Source: a virus
Taxonomy: Duplodnaviria; Caudoviricetes
Virus record (IMG/VR): IMGVR_UViG_3300020331_000002
DNA: 64,000 nt
Reading direction: 5' to 3' (one strand)
The notes beneath the pieces are model-generated. The model saw nothing but the letters and a program-made list of their open reading frames with translations, was not told the origin of the DNA and searched no databases. Below, in pieces: positions 40,530 to 50,147 of the stretch. Within the stretch, counting starts at the first letter, position 1. Each line of letters opens with the position of its first letter. The translations under genes and the position numbers were made by a program.

Positions 40530-41714
40530 ATGAGTAAGGTTCTTAATGAGAATTGGGGAGTTACCAAGAACGCTTTGCTGGAAGGCCTTCAGGGTTCTGT
40601 TCGCAAGACTACTGATGTAGTACTGGAAAATGCTCGAAAGCAAGCGCTTAGAGAAAGTGCCACGCATGGTTCAACCGGTACTGGTAATATCGCCACTGTA
40701 AACAAAATTATGCTTCCGTTGCTGCGCCGCGTTATGCCTAGCACGATTGCAAATGAAATCATGGGTGTTCAGCCGATGACTGGTCCGGTAGGCCAAATCC
40801 ATACTCTACGTGTAAACTACGCAGAAGACGGTGCTGGTTTTAAAGCTGGTCAAGAAGCGTTTAACCCGTTTGACATCGCGAAAGCGTACTCAGGTAACAA
40901 CGTAGCGAACTCGTCTACGTCGCCACTACCTGGTCCAAGTTCAACTGCCTCTATGGAAGGTGAACCTGGTCGCCGTATGTCTGTAAACATCTTGAAAGAG
41001 ACTGTTGAAGTTAAATCTCGTAAGCTATCTGCGAGCTGGACTTTCGAAGCTGCACAAGATGCTGAAGCTGTTCATGGCATCGACATCGAAGCAGAAATCA
41101 TGGAAGCTATTGCGCAAGAAATCACAGTTGAAATCGACCAAGAACTACTTGGCCGCTTACGCAACCTAGCTGGCGCACCTGCACAAAGCTACGATCAGAA
41201 CGCTGTTTCTGGTACTGCTACATTCGTAGGTGACGAGCACGCCGCTCTTGCAACTATGATGAACCTTGAAAGTAACTTGATCTCACAACGTACACGTCGT
41301 GGTGTTGCGAACTTTGCGGTAGTAAGCCCTGTGGCACTAACTATCCTACAGTCTGCGACTACTTCTGCGTTCGCACGTACCACTGAAGGTAAGTTCGATG
41401 CACCTCTTAACACTAAGTTAGTTGGTACTCTGAACAACGCTATGAAGATCTACGTAGATCAGTTTGCGTCTTCTGACGAAGCTGTATTACTAGGTTATAA
41501 AGGCAACGAGACTGACGCTGGTGCGTTCTACTGTCCTTATATCCCACTTCAATCAGTTGGTCCAATTATTGATCCTACTACTTTCCAACCAGTAGTAAGC
41601 TTCATGACTCGTTACGGTTACGTTGAGTTAACTAACACTGCAAACTCTTTCGGTAACGCAGGCGACTACTACAGCCGCATCGGTATCAACACTTCTAACT
41701 TGTCATTCTTCTAA
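40530..41714 (+). CDS. gp23: Major capsid protein
   Basis: IMGVQPMTGPVGQI.TLR, RKLSA.WT.EAAQD...HGID.EAEI...AQEI..EID.E, FYCPYIPL, MTRYG. Confidence 0.96.
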   Translation: MSKVLNENWGVTKNALLEGLQGSVRKTTDVVLENARKQALRESATHGSTGTGNIATVNKIMLPLLRRVMPSTIANEIMGVQPMTGPVGQIHTLRVNYAEDGAGFKAGQEAFNPFDIAKAYSGNNVANSSTSPLPGPSSTASMEGEPGRRMSVNILKETVEVKSRKLSASWTFEAAQDAEAVHGIDIEAEIMEAIAQEITVEIDQELLGRLRNLAGAPAQSYDQNAVSGTATFVGDEHAALATMMNLESNLISQRTRRGVANFAVVSPVALTILQSATTSAFARTTEGKFDAPLNTKLVGTLNNAMKIYVDQFASSDEAVLLGYKGNETDAGAFYCPYIPLQSVGPIIDPTTFQPVVSFMTRYGYVELTNTANSFGNAGDYYSRIGINTSNLSFF

Positions 41715-41731
41715 GAGTGATTTGTTGAAAT

Positions 41732-41760
41732 TAAAAAAGCCGCTTTCGAGCGGCTTTTTT
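41732..41760 (+). terminator. Intrinsic terminator after capsid gene
   Basis: AAAAAAGCCGC-TTTCGA-GCGGCTTTTTT. Confidence 0.9.
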
Positions 41761-41782
41761 GTTGCTCGGAATTCTGTTAGTA

Positions 41783-41813: not shown

Positions 41814-41931
41814 ATCGTAGAAGATAGAAAACTAGGAAACCCAGTTAGAGAACCGTAAGGAATTTTCTTGCGGTGATATAAATTGTGCTGTATTGTGTGT
41901 AACACCTGAAAACTATACATGGATTATTACA

Positions 41932-42270
41932 ATGCAGCCTTATGTGTATTATGGCTACGGTATTAAACTAGGCGAAGTTACTGAAGAAGAGTTTGACCAA
42001 ATAGAAGATGATGACTTTTTTCAAATTGCTTGGTTTAGTGACGGTTGCCGTGAGCAAGATTCCGGCATTGCATTTATAGACAATGCGTATCACTCACCAT
42101 GGGACGAAGACACTACGGAAAAACCTTCCCTGTCTTATGCTGTTGATACCGGTGATATTGACTCAGCGCGTATGAAGTATTTGCCGGAGTTACAAAAAGT
42201 TCTTGACCATCCGATGGTCAAAAAGTATAATAAGCAGATTAAATTTTACGTTTGTTGTACTGAAGTTTAA
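41932..42270 (+). CDS. Hypothetical acidic protein (112 aa)
   Basis: Likely ATG 41932 (MQPYVYYGYGIKL...); track start is an upstream TTG. Confidence 0.7.
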   Translation: MQPYVYYGYGIKLGEVTEEEFDQIEDDDFFQIAWFSDGCREQDSGIAFIDNAYHSPWDEDTTEKPSLSYAVDTGDIDSARMKYLPELQKVLDHPMVKKYNKQIKFYVCCTEV

Positions 42271-42280
42271 CAGTAAATGT

Positions 42281-42351
42281 GGCCCTGATTTGGCATAAGT
42301 AGCCGGTCTCTAAAACCGCGAAAGTGGGTTCGAATCCCGCCAGGGTCACCA
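42281..42351 (+). tRNA. Compact 71-nt tRNA with CUA anticodon (amber suppressor / tRNA-Pyl-like architecture), encoded CCA
   Basis: Acceptor GGCCCTG/CAGGGTC + A + CCA; T-arm GTGGG-TTCGAAT-CCCGC; anticodon arm (G)CCGGT-CTCTAAA-ACCG(C); short D-arm ATTT-GGCAT-AAGT. Confidence 0.85.
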
Positions 42352-42373
42352 ACCTAGTTTACAAGGATATCTA

Positions 42374-42502
42374 ATGGTAATTCCTGTTGTCAATATTTAT
42401 TGCATCAACTCGCCGTTCATTTGCTCGTTCGGTGGGCTATGCCAATATACAACATCGTCTGGTGGCTGCCATTACCCTGGCCCGTGCAAATTTAAAGTAT
42501 AA
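42374..42502 (+). CDS. Small Cys-rich protein (42 aa)
   Basis: SD AAGGA; MVIPVVNIYCINSPFICSFGGLCQYTTSSGGCHYPGPCKFKV; below ORF-track cutoff. Confidence 0.55.
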   Translation: MVIPVVNIYCINSPFICSFGGLCQYTTSSGGCHYPGPCKFKV

Positions 42503-42517
42503 TTAAGGAGAAACGTC

Positions 42518-42895
42518 ATGCGTTAGAACACTCAAAAACCATCACTTAAAATGTGGCGCTGGGGCAACGATAAGTTCGCCACTGGCTATAGAATATTCAC
42601 TTTATTCCATTCCAAAACACTCGGTATCGACTTGTATCTATTCAGGTATCCCGAGGGCTCATTCATTCCTAAGCATAAAGATCCTAAAACAAACGGACCT
42701 ACTACTCGTATAAACTTAGAACTCCGTAAAGCTCAGCAGGGCGGTGTTTTCAAGTGTAAGCGTAAATGGTCGTTGTTTGATAGATTACACGTCTTTAGAG
42801 CAGATAGAGACTATCACTCTGTGTCTAAAATAGAGAAAGGCTCTCGTTGGGTTTTGTCTTTAGGGATAGCAAACGTGTTCAAGAAACCGAGATAA
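42518..42895 (+). CDS. 2OG-Fe(II) oxygenase-like protein; the SD-supported start (42518) has an in-frame TAG at codon 3, internal ATG at 42551
   Basis: HxD (KHKD), distal H (YHSV) and R (GSRWVLS) pattern; AAGGAG 42505-42510 then ATG CGT TAG AAC ... in frame with ATG 42551. Confidence 0.7.
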
Positions 42896-42899
42896 TCGT

Positions 42900-43241
42900 C
42901 TATTTATTGGAAGTAATAATCAAGAATAAGCCGAGTGTGATGAATAACATACCGGCTACTTCTTGTATGTTGACTATCCTGTCTTTAAAAATCATTGTTT
43001 GGATAATTATTGCGCATAAGAATGAGCATCCTTGCGCTACGAGCGCAAGGGCTGGGTAACTATAATGTGATGATCCCGTACTGTAAAAATAAGTATATAA
43101 CCCGGTAGCAAGCCAAGTTATCGGAACGCATAAAAGTGATATGTAGAGTGAGTCTTGTAAATTGTTACTTCCTCTACTTATCGCCCATATGTTTGGAATC
43201 TGAACGAGTATTGACGCGCATAATATCGTTAACCATATCAT
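42900..43241 (-). CDS. Small multi-pass membrane protein (SMR/DMT-like, about 4 hydrophobic segments)
   Basis: 113 aa, four hydrophobic stretches, ends ...QEVAGMLFITLGLFLI; own sigma70 promoter. Confidence 0.65.
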   Translation of the reverse strand: MIWLTILCASILVQIPNIWAISRGSNNLQDSLYISLLCVPITWLATGLYTYFYSTGSSHYSYPALALVAQGCSFLCAIIIQTMIFKDRIVNIQEVAGMLFITLGLFLIITSNK

Positions 43242-43270
43242 TATTATTATATCCTTGATAAACCCCGTTG

Positions 43271-43299
43271 ATTATATAAGGTGCGCGACAATTAGTCAA
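43271..43299 (-). promoter_or_regulatory. Sigma70-type promoter
   Basis: Minus strand TTGACT-N17-TATAAT. Confidence 0.8.
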
Positions 43300-43342
43300 T
43301 AAAATGCTAAATAGACATATATAAAGAATAAGGTACCCTTTG

Positions 43343-44108: not shown

Positions 44109-47100
44109 ATGTCCTATGAATTTAATATCAATGGCGGCACGCGTTTTGTACTAACTAACGGTGAGTCATCAGGGATTGAAAACATTCGGTTAGAAGGGTC
44201 TGTTATTATAACAGAAGACTTAACTGTGCTAGGTAATAACACGGTTTTGGAAACTTCAACCGTAACAATTGAAGATACAATTATTACTATAGGCCGCGGC
44301 ACTGCTGAACTAGACCCGAGTGATGCGTTTTTGTCTGGCGGCTTGATTGTAGAAAGGCCGTCAGGTGAGAATCATAAAGGACTTTGGTACACACCTTCGG
44401 CGGCTAGTTTTATATTCGGTGAAACAACAACAGACAGTGAAGGCCAAGTTGCCGAGTTAAGTCCGGACGCGTATACTAATGTTTCCATGGGCCACTTAAC
44501 TGTGCATTATAACGCTGACGGCGCTGCTGATGCGTACATCGGTGATCCTTCAACTAAGTTTACCTCTTCGGGTACAGTGCAATTCGGTAAGCTATCTAAT
44601 GCTGAGTCAACGAACATACAAGGCGAAAATGCTTCTTTTGAAAATCCCAAAGACGTCCGCGTCAAAACAGGCGGCGCTGTACGTGAAGAAGTTCGTGTAG
44701 AGGACTCTAGCTTTGGTGAATGGCGTGTTCGTACTTCGTCGCTAGTTGGCGCAGCTGGATCAGAAATCGTTTATGACCAAGACCTTTATATGGGTAACGG
44801 TGAGTTCACTTACAATGGTGATACTGTACTTACTATGGGTTCTGGCGACTATGTTGTTTCTATTAACGACTTGCAAGGCGTAGTCGAGTTTAGGTTATTT
44901 GACTTACTAGACGTCGAAGGCGATCACCAAGAGTTTGCTGGTGCACCGAGAGAAGACGGTAAGTACTTGAAATTCAACGCTAGTGAAGGTGTTTGGCTGC
45001 CGTCTTTTATTACTCATATAAACGAGATAGAAAACGTTAACGCCAACGAGATTGCAGGCCGTGTGCTACAATATCGACTAGACTCATCTGACGGTGTGTA
45101 TCGTTGGATGGAGTCTACTGTCGCTATGCCTGAGAAACTGTTCCAGCTATTGGATGTAGACATGTCAACTGAGACAGAAGCCGAACCCGGTCAGTCTCTT
45201 ATATGGTTTGAAGAAGACGAAGTATCCGGAGCAGGCTTCTGGCGCCCGTCATTCATCCCTAGTATACACTCAATCATGGATGTAGAAAGCACGCTGCCAG
45301 ACGCCGGAGACGAGGGTAAAGCCTTAATCTGGAATAACACAACAGGAAAGTGGGTTTTAAGCGCTACGAGCTTTGTAGAGGTATTAGACGACCTTGCTGA
45401 CGTTAATGGTGTGCTTAATCTTGACGACAAAGCGTTTCTTAAGTATGACTTGGACAACTCGCAATGGGCGCCTGGTTTTGTAGACGACATCGGCGAGATT
45501 ACTAATGTTAGGGAAATGTCAAACGGGCTGTCGCAGGACAACAATCTTCTTAAATACAACTTCAGTGACCAAGTTTGGGAAGCCGGTATAATCGACGATT
45601 TAGCTGAAATCGGCAACGTCTATATTCCTGATTACGGTACTGTAGAAGAAGGCCATACAATTAAGTGGGACGTGGTAAACGCTCGCTGGGTCACTGGTCC
45701 TTCTCTGTCCAGGCTATTTGATGTGACTGATGTTAAAGAAACTGAAGGCTCAATGGCGGAAGGCCGTTTCCTTGTTTGGCGCGCTAACGGGCCAGACGGT
45801 CCTGGCTGGTATCAGTCTGACATGTCTCAAGTGCAAGTCCTAGATGACCTGAACGACGTTATTATCGATCAAGGCGATTTATCAGACGGTAAAATCCTGC
45901 GATATAACAGCTCTTTGTCCCAATGGGAACCGGGCATTATACAGCAAATTACCGAGATAGGCGACGTTACAATTGATTATGATCAGCAGTCAGTAAACGG
46001 CATTAGAGATCAACACGTATTAAAGTGGAACGGTAGTCGCTTCGTAAACGGGTTTGTCAGTAAAATATCAGACATTGAGAACGTCGACGCTGTTGACAAC
46101 CCGACAGACGGTGACTTTTTACGTTATGTTGAGAGCACAGGCCGTTGGACTAACAGCCCGATTAACTCAATCGACGAAATAGTAAACGTTCAATTAGGCG
46201 GAATAGCCGATGGAAAAGTATTAGAATGGGATTCGTCTGCGAATGCCGGCCAAGGCGCGTTCGTGCCAAGCGCCGGGTCTCGTGTTGAATATTTCGGTGA
46301 CTTGGTTGATGTTACTGTTCCTGAAGACCCATCGCAAATAACGGTTGGGTCTGCGCTTCGCTTTAACGGTAGTAAGTGGACACCGTACGATTATTCATTC
46401 CCTGAGGCTATCGGTGATATGAATAATGTTATTATCACCGGACCTGTTACCGGCGACGCCCTTTTATTCAACGGTACTGACTGGGTTAATGGCAATATAC
46501 CGCATCCTACTCGCTTAGAACAGCTACGTGACGACGTTGATTTGGACACTCCGCTTAACGGCGAAGTATTAATGTACGATGGCACTAATTGGATTAACTC
46601 AACCGCGGTAGTAGTTGACGTATTAGACGATTTAGATGACGTTGAATTGAACTCACCAAGAGACGATCAATTCTTGCGCTACGACATTGCAGAAGCGCGT
46701 TGGAAAAACCAAACTGTAAAAATTCCATTAAACATTTTGGATCTTGAAGACGTTAATCCTAACTATAGATTACCAGACGATAACCCTTATTATGAAGAGC
46801 CACAAACCGGCGAAGTACTTCGTTATAATGGTGTATACTGGGAAGGTGTTACTCTACCTGTTTATGATCAGTTAGATGATCTATTGGATGTGACTATTAG
46901 TGGCGCAGCCGTTGATCATGTGCTGTATTACAACGGCGCTGGCTGGCAAAACCGCAAGCTAGACTTCATATCTAATATGGATGATTTACTCGATGTTAGC
47001 GCTGATTCACCCACCAACGGCTCTATATTGATTTATGACGGCCCTGCGTCTGAATGGGTTGCGAGTAGTGTAGGCGATTTAAACATTGTAATTGACGATT

Positions 47101-50100
47101 TAGATGATGTCGACACGCTTAACGTACAAGCAGGCCACGTGCTAACGGCTGTACCTAACGGCGAAGGATTTTTATGGACTAACCAACCCCCGGCTTATAG
47201 TACTTTGGGTTCACTAGATGACGTTAACGATGGCTCACGCGCACTAGGCAAATACTTGCGTTATGATGGTACTCGCTGGGTTGCTAGTGAGCTAGTTACT
47301 AGTGAAATTTTAGACTCGTTAATTGAAGAATTATCACTAGATGAACTAGGCGATGTCACTATAGACAATACTCTAGACACCGGTCACATGCTTGTTCATG
47401 TAGAGGGCGTATGGGTTAACCAAAACGTAGGCGAAGCTTTCGGGCAATATGCAACGATAGGTGATTTAGGTAACGTTACCGCTGACGCGCCACTAGCAGG
47501 TGACACAATTGTTTATGACGATGTAACTGGCAGATATGTGTCTGTTAACTTGGTTCAAGTAGTTAAAACTGGCCTTAATCTTGCAGAGCTAGCAGGGACT
47601 GAAAACGGTGAGCAGTATGTATGGGATGCAACTGGCGCCGAGTGGGTAGTTAAGCACTTAGGTGATCCGTCAGGAGAACCTGACGCCGGTAAAGTTCTTA
47701 CTTGGGATGGCACCAAATGGACCACCCAAGATTTACCTGAAGACAAGTTCATCAAACTATTAAGTGAATTAGACGACGTTCAAACCGACGATTTGGCTTC
47801 CATACAAAACAACCAAATACTACGCTGGAATGCCGCGAGTCAGTACTGGGAGAACGTTGATTGGCCTAGTATTTCACTGCACATGTTAGAAGACGTTGAC
47901 TTCGTTACGCCTGATTTGAATGATTTGGTCGCATACGACGGTACTAGGTGGGTTAACTTAGACTTGCCGGTAATTGCAGGCAATGTGCTTGAGCTAGATA
48001 ACTTGTCTAACGTAAATGCTTCTGTTCCTAGCGACCAACAAGTATTGGCGTATAGTGCCGCTAATGGTGAGTGGCAGAGTACTGATATTGCTACGGTTGC
48101 AAATAACAACCTAAATTTATCCGACTTGGCTGATGTGTTTGATGGCGTATCGCCAAGTGGCGAAACCAAATATTTGGCTTGGGACTTTGACAACTCTCGA
48201 TGGAGTGTTAGTTCAGTATCATTAAACGCATTCGCAATCAACGAACTAAGCAACGTTACCATATCGTCACCGGCTGCTGGTAATTTCCTTAGATTCGACG
48301 GTGTAGAGTGGATAAACGATAGTGTGATTATCCCGACTACATTGAATAGCTTGTTAGATGTTAGTACAACAAATCCAACAAATGGCGCTTTCTTAGCATA
48401 TGAGGAAGAGTCGAATGAATGGATTGCTAGGAACTATCTAATAGTTGAGTCACTTAGTGATTTATCTGACGTTAACACAACAGGTGTACAGCCAGGCGAC
48501 ACACTAATATATCAAGGCGGGTCGTGGGTTCCTATCCAATTACCGCCTGTAACACTCGAATCACGTGACTTGACTGATATATCGGATACCGCAGCTACTG
48601 ACGGCCAAGTCCTGTTATGGAACGAATCCGCAGGGAAATGGGAACCAAACAACCTACCGGATCCGTTTATTCCTGAGGTTTTAAACGACTTAAGCAATGT
48701 TAACGTTCCTGCACCGTCGGCAAATGACGTACTTGTATTTGACAACGTTAGTGGCGAATGGATAGCTGCTGCTTTCAGTACTTTGGTTAATGTAGAACTC
48801 GGTCAAATCACTAATGTTTCGTTATCAAACGTTGTTGATGCCCATGTATTGGCGTATAACTCTGCTTCGGGTGATTGGGAGAATACACCGATAGGTTCGC
48901 TAGGGGTCGACGTGGGTGACTTAGGCGACGTCACCGGTACAGCGAGTGCTGATAACCGTTTCCTTGTTTACAATGACACTACTGGGAAATGGGATATTAC
49001 TGAATTCCAGACAATCAGTATGATTAAAGATGTCAATGCAGCTGGCGCAGCAAGCGGTGATGCTCTTGTTTGGAATGGCACGCAATTTGTTCCTGGGTCA
49101 CCAGGCAACGTAAATGCCGAATCACTAAATGGCCAGCCAGCGTCGGCATATTTGCGCTCGGATGAAGCTGATGCAGGCGTAGCACTAGAACTCAGTGACG
49201 TAAGGCCTCTTGCTTTTTCTAGTTCATCAGAGGTTAGAATTGGTGCTGACTCTGCTCCGCGACTTGGTGTATATGCCCCGCGTGTTAGTGTGTTAGCTGA
49301 TAGTATATCGTTGAATTATAGTCCGCTAGACGCTGCTGGTGTCAAATTTGTACCTGACACGGCGCCTGCACTTAGTGAAGCTGGCTTCATGTGGTGTGAT
49401 TCAAGTGATAACTCGTTAATGTTTTATAACGGTACTGAGCAGCTTAATATCTCAAATATAGCAACTCAGAATTATATAGTTAATGACACTGACGGCGAGC
49501 TTACTAGTCTAACTATTACGGCAGCCGAAGCGAAGATGTATGTAGAGGGCACGACTAACGAGAATACACGTTTCACGTTCTCTGACAAGGCCACAGACAA
49601 AGCCGCACTTGTTGACATGGGCGCAAGCATACTAACTGATATCGGCGGCACTAACGGTAACGCTGGCGCTCAGACGGTATCGGTTACTGGTAAAACAGTG
49701 TTGTACAGTGACGCAGGTGACGTGTACAGACGTAACGGATCTGGCACTGATCGATTGGCGACGATTGCCGACATACAAGCTGAAATTATAACAGCTAACG
49801 CGAGTTATACGACAGTGAGTGGCAACTCAGTGGCGCTAAGTGAAGGTAATAGTTTAGTTCGCTACGCTATTCCTGATAACACAACAAGTGTAATGAACAT
49901 CTCTGGCCTAGATCAATTAGAAACTGGTAACTCAGTAGTTATAGCGGCAACGGCAAATACCGTTATATCTAATTGGGGTGCTAACTCTAGATTAAGAATG
50001 GAGGTTACTGGCTTAACAGGTATGTACGTAAATGGCGTATATACGTCAGGCACTACACATATTATTGACTTAAGTGCTACGCCTAATATTACGCTTTACT

Positions 50101-50147
50101 TCTACGAAGACGGATCTAATAAGTACTTTATTTGTCAAGCGTCCTAG
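44109..50147 (+). CDS. Large repeat-containing tail fibre / whisker-like protein (2012 aa)
   Basis: N-term LEGSVII..DLTV.G...ETSTVTIED.II....GGLIVER; about 37 degenerate L.DL.DV....G..L.Y....W repeats; CTAAATA 44071-44077. Confidence 0.75.
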   Translation: MSYEFNINGGTRFVLTNGESSGIENIRLEGSVIITEDLTVLGNNTVLETSTVTIEDTIITIGRGTAELDPSDAFLSGGLIVERPSGENHKGLWYTPSAASFIFGETTTDSEGQVAELSPDAYTNVSMGHLTVHYNADGAADAYIGDPSTKFTSSGTVQFGKLSNAESTNIQGENASFENPKDVRVKTGGAVREEVRVEDSSFGEWRVRTSSLVGAAGSEIVYDQDLYMGNGEFTYNGDTVLTMGSGDYVVSINDLQGVVEFRLFDLLDVEGDHQEFAGAPREDGKYLKFNASEGVWLPSFITHINEIENVNANEIAGRVLQYRLDSSDGVYRWMESTVAMPEKLFQLLDVDMSTETEAEPGQSLIWFEEDEVSGAGFWRPSFIPSIHSIMDVESTLPDAGDEGKALIWNNTTGKWVLSATSFVEVLDDLADVNGVLNLDDKAFLKYDLDNSQWAPGFVDDIGEITNVREMSNGLSQDNNLLKYNFSDQVWEAGIIDDLAEIGNVYIPDYGTVEEGHTIKWDVVNARWVTGPSLSRLFDVTDVKETEGSMAEGRFLVWRANGPDGPGWYQSDMSQVQVLDDLNDVIIDQGDLSDGKILRYNSSLSQWEPGIIQQITEIGDVTIDYDQQSVNGIRDQHVLKWNGSRFVNGFVSKISDIENVDAVDNPTDGDFLRYVESTGRWTNSPINSIDEIVNVQLGGIADGKVLEWDSSANAGQGAFVPSAGSRVEYFGDLVDVTVPEDPSQITVGSALRFNGSKWTPYDYSFPEAIGDMNNVIITGPVTGDALLFNGTDWVNGNIPHPTRLEQLRDDVDLDTPLNGEVLMYDGTNWINSTAVVVDVLDDLDDVELNSPRDDQFLRYDIAEARWKNQTVKIPLNILDLEDVNPNYRLPDDNPYYEEPQTGEVLRYNGVYWEGVTLPVYDQLDDLLDVTISGAAVDHVLYYNGAGWQNRKLDFISNMDDLLDVSADSPTNGSILIYDGPASEWVASSVGDLNIVIDDLDDVDTLNVQAGHVLTAVPNGEGFLWTNQPPAYSTLGSLDDVNDGSRALGKYLRYDGTRWVASELVTSEILDSLIEELSLDELGDVTIDNTLDTGHMLVHVEGVWVNQNVGEAFGQYATIGDLGNVTADAPLAGDTIVYDDVTGRYVSVNLVQVVKTGLNLAELAGTENGEQYVWDATGAEWVVKHLGDPSGEPDAGKVLTWDGTKWTTQDLPEDKFIKLLSELDDVQTDDLASIQNNQILRWNAASQYWENVDWPSISLHMLEDVDFVTPDLNDLVAYDGTRWVNLDLPVIAGNVLELDNLSNVNASVPSDQQVLAYSAANGEWQSTDIATVANNNLNLSDLADVFDGVSPSGETKYLAWDFDNSRWSVSSVSLNAFAINELSNVTISSPAAGNFLRFDGVEWINDSVIIPTTLNSLLDVSTTNPTNGAFLAYEEESNEWIARNYLIVESLSDLSDVNTTGVQPGDTLIYQGGSWVPIQLPPVTLESRDLTDISDTAATDGQVLLWNESAGKWEPNNLPDPFIPEVLNDLSNVNVPAPSANDVLVFDNVSGEWIAAAFSTLVNVELGQITNVSLSNVVDAHVLAYNSASGDWENTPIGSLGVDVGDLGDVTGTASADNRFLVYNDTTGKWDITEFQTISMIKDVNAAGAASGDALVWNGTQFVPGSPGNVNAESLNGQPASAYLRSDEADAGVALELSDVRPLAFSSSSEVRIGADSAPRLGVYAPRVSVLADSISLNYSPLDAAGVKFVPDTAPALSEAGFMWCDSSDNSLMFYNGTEQLNISNIATQNYIVNDTDGELTSLTITAAEAKMYVEGTTNENTRFTFSDKATDKAALVDMGASILTDIGGTNGNAGAQTVSVTGKTVLYSDAGDVYRRNGSGTDRLATIADIQAEIITANASYTTVSGNSVALSEGNSLVRYAIPDNTTSVMNISGLDQLETGNSVVIAATANTVISNWGANSRLRMEVTGLTGMYVNGVYTSGTTHIIDLSATPNITLYFYEDGSNKYFICQAS

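Follow-up and report, generated by a model that had tools for sequence, protein, structure and literature searches.

The stretch of DNA analysed here (the window, 64,000 nt) corresponds to the minus strand of positions 182684-246683 of a marine phage genome of 310,672 bp, which is held in IMG/VR and has direct terminal repeats. At 42281..42351, on the plus strand of the window, it carries a 71-nt transfer RNA (tRNA) gene with the anticodon CUA, here called tRNA(CUA), which was defined by sequence, Rfam, ARAGORN, covariation and strain comparison. It is followed on the same strand by a cysteine-rich open reading frame (ORF) of 42 codons with six Cys (42374..42502, AAGGA 6 nt before the ATG) and by an oxygenase gene of family phrog_13746 (42518..42895, 125 codons), whose ATG lies 167 nt downstream of the tRNA gene. 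The oxygenase gene opens with ATG CGT TAG AAC, codon 3 being an in-frame amber codon (42524..42526, plus strand) with A as the next base, and a Shine-Dalgarno (SD) sequence AAGGAG (42505..42510, plus strand) stands 7 nt before the start codon. Our sequence comparisons confirm 42281-42351 as a real, undersized tRNA gene predicted to read UAG, and we consider it likely that its product is a working amber suppressor dedicated to a single UAG, codon 3 of the oxygenase gene about 170 nt downstream.

The sequence-only reading of this locus had listed an acceptor stem, a CUCUAAA loop, a four-nucleotide GAAA, a T arm, A73, CCA and a missing U8, and each of these, like the sequence itself, was found at 42281-42351 exactly as described. 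The acceptor stem (42281-87 / 42341-47) has 7 bp, with G2.U among them; the anticodon loop CTCTAAA (CUCUAAA; 42308-14) holds the anticodon CTA at 42310-12; the variable loop GAAA (42320-23) has 4 nt; the T arm GTGGG-TTCGAAT-CCCGC (42324-40) is canonical; and the discriminator A73 (42348) is followed by an encoded CCA (42349-51), all on the plus strand. Features of canonical tRNAs found here are the 7-bp acceptor stem, a 5-bp T stem with a GTTCRANNC loop, a 7-nt anticodon loop, U33 and a purine at position 37. Position 8 is A, so U8 is absent, and the acceptor and anticodon stems are separated by 14-15 nt, in the place of an expected D arm. The anticodon stem (about 42303-07 / 42315-19) can be drawn with 4 bp and a C.C mismatch or with 5 bp and a bulged C. 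As to the short D region (42288-42302), the earlier description was right about its shortness and the lack of U8, but the ATTT/AAGT hairpin proposed for it is disfavoured by the energy model: energy folding gave two competing small hairpins, with a pair probability of 0.02 for ATTT/AAGT vs. 0.9 for GGC/GCC. The fold with the ATTT/AAGT D hairpin reaches -20.6 kcal/mol and the minimum free energy fold -24.3; in the latter, GGC (42292-94) pairs with GCC (42302-04) and the anticodon stem is reduced to 3 bp. No diverged copy of the window's own tRNA was found for an analysis of covariation in the D region.

At its default settings ARAGORN reported zero tRNAs in the entire 64-kb window, and it called 42281-42351 as tRNA(cta) only with an 80% threshold or in mitochondrial mode. 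The Rfam tRNA model RF00005 skipped the D arm and scored 28.4 bits (E 5e-4 on 351 nt) vs. a gathering score of 29, so that a scan at the gathering threshold did not report the gene; the second-best Rfam match was the mascRNA model, at 22 bits. Both tools miss tRNA(CUA) because its D region is too short. The check with tRNA finders that had been proposed earlier therefore succeeded with ARAGORN in relaxed or mitochondrial mode, but not with default ARAGORN or at the Rfam gathering threshold.

In the ORF list the oxygenase begins at ATG 42551 (114 codons; phrog_13746, with a weak match to 2OG-FeII_Oxy_3). This ATG has no ribosome-binding site, while 33 bases upstream, in frame, stands AAGGAG-N7-ATG CGT TAG AAC. 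Read through the TAG, the gene encodes 125 residues, with 122 open codons past the TAG. The earlier statement that the long genes here contain no in-frame TAG is true, but it missed this one (42518-42895). A protein database holds the 125-residue form, 98% identical, from four ocean contigs, where it is called "with TAG=Q". A homologue with 58% identity (L093) starts ATG TAG AGC and lacks any further start codon, and its leader and that of the window share KPSL[KR] despite codon-family switches for Ser (TCA/AGT) and Leu (CTT/TTA). Conservation through such switches argues for selection on the protein, and hence for translation of the stretch after the TAG. Start codons downstream of the TAG are missing in L093, in Vibrio phage nt-1 and in many other homologues.

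The protein has the invariant residues H53-x-D55...H100...R110, which correspond to a 2-His-1-carboxylate triad and a 2-oxoglutarate-binding Arg. Its structure model has a predicted local distance difference test (pLDDT) score of 86.7, and Foldseek searches with this model returned only generic cupin/double-stranded beta-helix matches, with template-modelling scores of about 0.5 for PHD2, P4H and AspH. Since the matches are generic only, assignment of a specific substrate from the fold was rejected.

We also surveyed the whole genome for sites with a start, an early stop and a long open frame, and found three with TAG, seven with TAA and two with TGA. Among them the AAGGAG at 42505-10 is the only SD of score 6. 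The two other early-TAG sites were rejected as clients, one being a gene junction and the other an antisense frame, which leaves the oxygenase as the sole convincing early-TAG client in the genome.

The same tRNA with CTA was found in seven other assemblies: two from IMG/VR (L009, L010), one GenBank metagenome contig (L131) and four ENA/Logan ocean contigs (L089-L092). Each of them has a single change in the tRNA, at 42342, where U6-A67 becomes U6.G67 and pairing is kept. In five strain variants this amounts to 1 difference per 71 nt of tRNA vs. 3.5-5% over the surrounding kilobase. Divergence of the upstream ORF is 5%, and the 42-codon ORF, which is restricted to this phage lineage, varies more than any other part of the locus, with 4-17 differences per 129 nt (3-13%) among strains. 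Marine metatranscriptome contigs from two studies cover 41904-43300 without any difference, and a more distant strain from an RNA library has 73 differences in 1566 nt; in the tRNA, 42342 is the only position among the differences listed. This RNA evidence consists of assembled contigs and speaks for presence in RNA libraries, not for transcript ends, strand, level or maturation. An assembly error, with CCA read as CTA, had been named as a possible objection; with CTA in seven assemblies and in the metatranscriptome contigs of both studies, tRNA(CUA) is not an assembly error.

Codons 1-121 of the oxygenase gene in L009 show 13 synonymous vs. 1 non-synonymous change, where a non-synonymous share of 79% is expected for random changes. 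The TAG is retained in all five strain variants. Judged by these substitutions, the oxygenase gene is under strong purifying selection; since the TAG is kept at the same time, the gene appears to be in use, which requires UAG to be read. At the other end of the gene, the last sense codon AGA is replaced by TAG in L089-L092 and is followed by the normal stop (e.g., L089:1578-1583). The oxygenase of these contigs thus has an amber codon at both ends, and the tandem stop would catch readthrough.

To define how far the early TAG is spread, we relied on protein searches that covered IMG/VR, JGI metagenomes and GenBank phages, and on the leader pattern M-(0-7 residues)-TAG-(2-20 residues)-[LMW][FWQ][RKQH]W. 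There are 33 distinct leader peptides with the TAG at codon 2-8, and nt-1 and L104 add two from outside the pattern; protein identity is 38-65%. Cultured carriers are Xanthomonas phage XaC1 (ATG AAA TAG ACC), Vibrio phage nt-1 (ATG TAG ACT; host Vibrio natriegens) and, judged from similarity, Vibrio phage CZ01. In the GenBank records of XaC1 and nt-1 the oxygenase is annotated from a later start, and the tRNA(CUA) of XaC1 is unannotated; the paper on phage XaC1 mentions neither a suppressor nor an amber codon. Distant homologues (33-48% identity) with a normal start and no early stop occur in Pseudomonas phages D6, Phabio and Lu11, Ralstonia phage RP31, Burkholderia phage FLC9 and Vibrio phage SJSY21. 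The base 3' of the TAG is A in 29/33 leaders and G in the other 4/33, with C or T in 0/33. In Escherichia coli, suppressors are known to compete better with release factor 1 (RF1) at an amber codon when a purine follows, most of all when it is A.

A tRNA(CUA) on the same strand accompanies the TAG gene in all 15 TAG lineages from IMG/VR and GenBank. In 13 of the 15 it is small (67-71 nt) and lies less than 700 nt from the gene, mostly less than 100 nt, either before or after it. The two full-size forms are a 75-nt tRNA(CUA) located 1.9 kb upstream of the TAG gene in L101 and a 74-nt one located 60 kb from it in the L106 phage. Most metagenome lineages are paired too, often with 3-13 nt from the gene stop to the tRNA, and the few unpaired ones are on short contigs. 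Using a search model built from the window tRNA, we found no CUA tRNA in four complete genomes with a TAG-less homologue; the best match to this model in phage D6 was tRNA-Trp(CCA). The targeted suppressor, one of three functions offered by the sequence-only reading, fits these results, given the nearby TAG-bearing oxygenase gene and the co-occurrence of tRNA and TAG.

Some tRNA genes at these loci have unusual features of their own. The full-size tRNA(CUA) of L101 (L101:525-599) has C33 in place of the near-universal U (loop CCCTAAA) and a D arm that resembles tRNA-Trp. Genes of 77-78 nt with Leu anticodons (UAA, CAA, UAG) and without a long variable arm are found at L111:1819-1978, L093:802-879 and 1551-1627, and L104:649-725. 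Bacterial tRNA-Leu normally has a long variable arm.

In most lineages the pair of tRNA and TAG gene stands in a tRNA cluster and not near a capsid gene. The window phage has 23 ordinary tRNA genes, which are clustered at 21-44 kb of the genome, and its tRNA(CUA) is isolated 160 kb away among T4-like late genes (prohead protease, scaffold and gp23-family major capsid protein), starting about 570 nt after the capsid gene (40530-41714). A search with the capsid gene gave 80 loci, and only in two of them, 99% identical, does tRNA(CUA) follow the capsid gene; the capsid relative that holds L014 and L109 keeps the tRNA/oxygenase pair inside the tRNA cluster instead. The position of tRNA(CUA) in the window, inside a transcribed region downstream of the gp23-like gene, and the mascRNA match would agree with a tRNA-shaped processing signal, at which RNase P or RNase Z would cut the late transcript and which would never be charged. 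We give this explanation very little credence, as it accounts neither for the invariant CUA loop and the encoded A-CCA end nor for co-inheritance with the TAG codon in about 35 lineages, most of which have the pair in tRNA clusters, away from capsid genes.

Covariation in the small tRNA(CUA) family was counted on a segment parse; a MAFFT alignment, which misplaces the 5' acceptor strand, was left unused. In 11 diverged small members, 75/77 cells of the acceptor stem are paired, with 3-5 pair types at every position, and the T stem is paired in 55/55 cells. By this measure of covariation, the acceptor and T stems of the family are selected RNA helices. A73 is present in 22/23 relatives, an encoded CCA is almost universal, and RGG stands 3-5 nt past the acceptor stem. 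The window tRNA fits these family marks (67-71 nt, encoded A-CCA, YUCUAAN loop, RGG 3-5 nt past the acceptor), and its nearest matches in the acceptor and T arms are L134, L136 and L141, which are also the nearest by oxygenase leader.

A distal helix of 4-6 bp can form in 16/23 distinct small members, between the nucleotides just ahead of the inner anticodon stem and those just ahead of the T stem. Its sequence differs by lineage, and in a control with swapped 3' strands a mean of 3.7 members reached at least 4 bp, with a maximum of 9 in 2000 trials. Plain energy folding gave the resulting three-helix shape in 7/12 non-window members. Most members of the family have no apparent D hairpin, and the long anticodon arm could replace the stacked anticodon and D stems, while a linker bearing GG could extend to the T loop in most of them. 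In place of the distal helix, the window copy and L138 have a continuous anticodon stem of greater length, which in the window is broken by one C, and a short variable loop; in L138 the anticodon stem has 6 continuous bp and the variable loop 3 nt.

The remainder of the genome was examined for use of TAG. Its 260 stop-to-stop ORFs of at least 150 codons (263 kb in total) end in TAA 167 times, in TGA 66 times and in TAG 27 times. Over the whole genome, joins of long frames across TAG are no commoner than across TAA, and three TAG-joined pairs of long frames were rejected as mid-gene clients, being ordinary gene junctions or non-coding frames. Backup stops do not mark the TAG-ending ORFs either, as the distance to the next in-frame stop is the same as for TAA and TGA (p = 0.53). 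Apart from the one early-TAG gene, the phage uses the standard genetic code and does not qualify for code 15. The description of an amber tRNA in a standard-code phage is therefore correct, with TAG ending 27/260 long ORFs. Taken together, the comparisons directly support a tRNA-like gene, a conserved TAG, their co-occurrence, purifying selection on both and the lack of any other client.

No charging enzyme had been seen in the window, and a search of the whole genome for five synthetase families was also empty: PylS, Trp/TyrRS, Gln/GluRS and Lys/Asp/AsnRS were all missing from the complete 310,672-bp genome, while the control genomes were all positive. The PylS profile TIGR02367 had no match in the full genome and passed its cut-off in a Pyl-bearing control; pylBCD were not searched for.

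As the sequence-only reading had seen a tRNA-Pyl-like architecture here, we compared the window tRNA with this family, whose hallmarks are CUA, G1:C72, G73, an anticodon stem of 6 bp and a variable loop of 3 nt, and which needs PylRS (PMC7609411). Likeness to tRNA-Pyl is found in the CUA anticodon, the CUCUAAA loop and G1:C72. A compact core, drawn with few or no connector bases and a small D loop, the lengthened anticodon stem and the short variable loop are shared with both tRNA-Pyl and mammalian mitochondrial tRNA-Ser(UCN) (PMC7609411). Unlike tRNA-Pyl, the window tRNA has A73 and not G73, a 4-nt variable loop, GG together with TTCGA, a canonical T loop and no PylS in the genome, and its anticodon stem is not one of 6 bp. 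Because G73, the 3-nt variable loop and PylRS are all missing, the window tRNA is, judged from its sequence, not a tRNA-Pyl, and what the two share is shape and not family membership; as a statement of kinship, the earlier comparison fails on A73, the 4-nt variable loop and the missing PylS.

It would still be conceivable that the gene encodes a tRNA-Pyl-like orthogonal tRNA that inserts a non-standard amino acid at UAG and is charged by an unrecognised enzyme. The CUA anticodon, G1:C72, the compact D region and, in one possible fold, an interrupted anticodon stem of six layers would agree with this, as would the continuous 6-bp anticodon stem and 3-nt variable loop of the relative L138. We find it barely credible in view of A73 in place of the universal G73, the 4-nt variable loop and the presence of GG and TTCGA (criteria of PMC7609411), and of a complete genome with neither PylS nor four other synthetase families. 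Furthermore, the TAG drifts from codon 2 to codon 8 in a variable leader, so the inserted residue can hardly matter for catalysis. The link drawn earlier to the anticodon arm of tRNA-Trp proved weak as well, the best blastn match being 36 nt of an Aeromonas phage tRNA-Trp at 86.5%, and in a global comparison with 79 phage tRNAs no isoacceptor stood out for the window tRNA.

Laboratory amber suppressors of E. coli include supF (tRNA-Tyr CUA) and su7 (tRNA-Trp CUA, charged with Gln). The window tRNA shares with them the CUCUAAA loop with A37-A38, the predicted reading of UAG against RF1 and a 3' purine of the kind that improves suppression. supF and su7 arose by single-base mutation from full-size cellular tRNAs whose charging is known, whereas the window tRNA is a natural, conserved 71-nt gene.

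CUA tRNAs in standard-code jumbo myoviruses have been described for Xanthomonas phage XacN1 (PMC5852040) and Ralstonia phage RsoM2USA (PMC8504454). The authors of the XacN1 study examined readthrough at 18 terminal amber stops without result and say explicitly that they identified no target (PMC5852040); the target of the RsoM2USA tRNA was likewise not identified (PMC8504454). Like these phages, the window phage has an amber tRNA in a large gp23-type genome without genome recoding or an explaining synthetase, a lack that the authors of both studies report for their phages as well. In contrast to them, its tRNA is undersized and its likely target is a TAG inside the neighbouring gene, close to the 5' end; XacN1 and RsoM2USA have no homologue of the oxygenase. 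Full-text literature searches gave no description of a pairing of tRNA(CUA) with a TAG-bearing oxygenase gene.

The lack of an identified target or of an oxygenase homologue in XacN1 and RsoM2USA would suit a different function, in which tRNA(CUA) acts as a general modifier that weakens UAG termination on host or phage messages, or as a decoy for host anticodon nucleases, and the neighbouring TAG is incidental or a mere reporter. Phage tRNAs that counter tRNA-targeting defences exist, and the 27/260 long ORFs that end in TAG would make substrates available. We nevertheless rate such a function as very unlikely for the window, where tRNA(CUA) is tightly linked, both physically and phyletically, to one TAG-bearing gene, where long in-frame extensions behind TAG-ending ORFs do not exceed the TAA/TGA level, and where the next in-frame stop is equally distant for TAG and the other stops.

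In code-15 phages, TAG is read as Gln by a suppressor tRNA (bioRxiv 10.1101/2021.08.26.457843; PMC9523058). The proposed suppressor would resemble them in that a phage tRNA(CUA) makes UAG readable and expression of the TAG gene depends on it. The scale is different: code-15 phages have tens to hundreds of mostly late genes with many TAGs, while the window phage has one small gene with one TAG near its start, and TAG ends about 1/10 of its long ORFs.

Several observations weigh against a dedicated suppressor. tRNA(CUA) fails both standard tRNA detectors, and energy folding gives no agreed fold of its D region. The family's distal helix is missing in the window copy, which has 1 bp there, so this copy could be degraded. 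In the oxygenase gene, the in-frame ATG 42551 sits 9 codons past the TAG, near the annotated start of some homologues, and re-initiation at this codon could therefore yield a nearly complete protein without suppression. The metatranscriptome contigs may contain DNA and do not show that the RNA is matured, charged or used. Finally, TAA takes the place of TAG in four leaders from two lineages (L148/L149/L177 and L155/L156), and a UUA tRNA was not found within 10 kb of L177 or in L155; an early stop can thus persist without a suppressor close by, and the early-stop gate can be lost or altered.

The sub-threshold scores in ARAGORN and Rfam, the missing distal helix, the ATG past the TAG and the TAA variants with no suppressor in sight would all fit a decaying tRNA relic without present function, next to an oxygenase gene whose product, if made at all, would come from re-initiation at ATG 42551 behind a mini-ORF of two codons. 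We consider this improbable. The tRNA has one pair-preserving change per 71 nt among strains that diverge by 3.5-5% around it, ATG 42551 has no ribosome-binding site while ATG 42518 has AAGGAG, the oxygenase appears to be under strong purifying selection with the TAG kept, and most homologues have no start codon past the TAG. As for the TAA leaders themselves, they read ATG AAA TAA ACT and ATG AAC TAA GGC (L148:857, L149:1501, L177:9974-10003, L155:1501), with the stop at codon 3; one of the two lineages has an ATG seven codons later and the other has none.

Under the preferred reading, a suppressor dedicated to the oxygenase UAG, we infer expression of a mature tRNA, its charging, readthrough and the purpose of the gate as follows. 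A sigma-70-like promoter, TTGACC-17 nt-TATAAT, with 11/12 consensus matches lies about 50 nt upstream of tRNA(CUA) (42203..42231, plus strand). A consensus scan gave 5 such sites per 1.5 kb vs. 3.8 expected, which taken alone is weak evidence; the site at 42203-31 shows 0/29 differences in five strain variants that diverge by 3.5-5% nearby. It is a candidate promoter for a unit of the tRNA, the 42-codon ORF and the oxygenase gene. tRNA(CUA) would be transcribed, possibly from this site, within a longer RNA that carries the 42-codon ORF and the oxygenase gene, and would be excised by host RNase P and 3' exonucleases, with the CCA already encoded. Given the A36-A37-A38 motif, it probably receives N6-isopentenyladenosine at position 37 (i6A37). 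The charging enzyme may be a host synthetase whose main identity elements are U35, A36 and A73, a mode of recognition suggested by the varied acceptor stems in the family; Lys, Tyr, Gln and Leu are possible. Ribosomes starting at ATG 42518 would then meet UAG-A and either insert a residue, giving the 125-aa enzyme, or stop after two residues. In this way the output of oxygenase would be tied to the supply of one charged phage tRNA.

In Pseudomonas phage D6 (L112:776-4128), the TAG-less homologue is found in a tRNA region, flanked by an RtcB RNA ligase gene and by one annotated as rRNA large-subunit methyltransferase N (RlmN-like). The location of the oxygenase family in tRNA clusters, together with that of the D6 copy, hints that the enzyme may act on tRNA or the translation apparatus. 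We therefore put forward, tentatively and with more doubt than confidence, that the tRNA is the key to a translational lock set by the UAG, so that a standard-code phage makes one enzyme only once its own non-cloverleaf suppressor tRNA has been produced, matured and charged, that the oxygenase acts on tRNA or the translation machinery and so closes a feedback loop, and that the small tRNAs work without a normal D arm. If this were true, the state of the tRNA pool would set the level of an enzyme that modifies tRNA or ribosomes.

The published amber tRNAs of jumbo phages had no identified target (PMC5852040, PMC8504454), and for one large group there is now a testable candidate, a single early UAG in one small conserved gene. 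With one tRNA, one codon and one gene, the proposed pair would be a minimal natural form of codon-level gene control. Gating of one gene lies between programmed readthrough and recoding of a whole genome, and may be a starting point for recoding. If charged and used, undersized tRNAs that mostly have no normal D hairpin and that standard finders overlook would widen the range of working bacterial tRNAs and could serve as compact suppressor scaffolds.

Other features of the neighbourhood were recorded as well. Megablast of the 3-kb surroundings against GenBank phages gave no match. Just past the capsid stop, at a 32-nt stretch (41731-41762) of very high depth, contigs of three runs break or diverge, which suggests a repeat that is dispersed within the genome or common to other genomes. 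A terminator-like hairpin (41744-41771) overlaps this stretch and is followed by TATAAATA (41783), a T4 late-promoter motif. Further downstream, at 44109-50147, lies a fibre-like ORF of 2012 codons, which phrog_9627 matched in nine separate stretches and tail or tail-fibre families matched weakly; it probably encodes a giant repetitive fibre or decoration protein.

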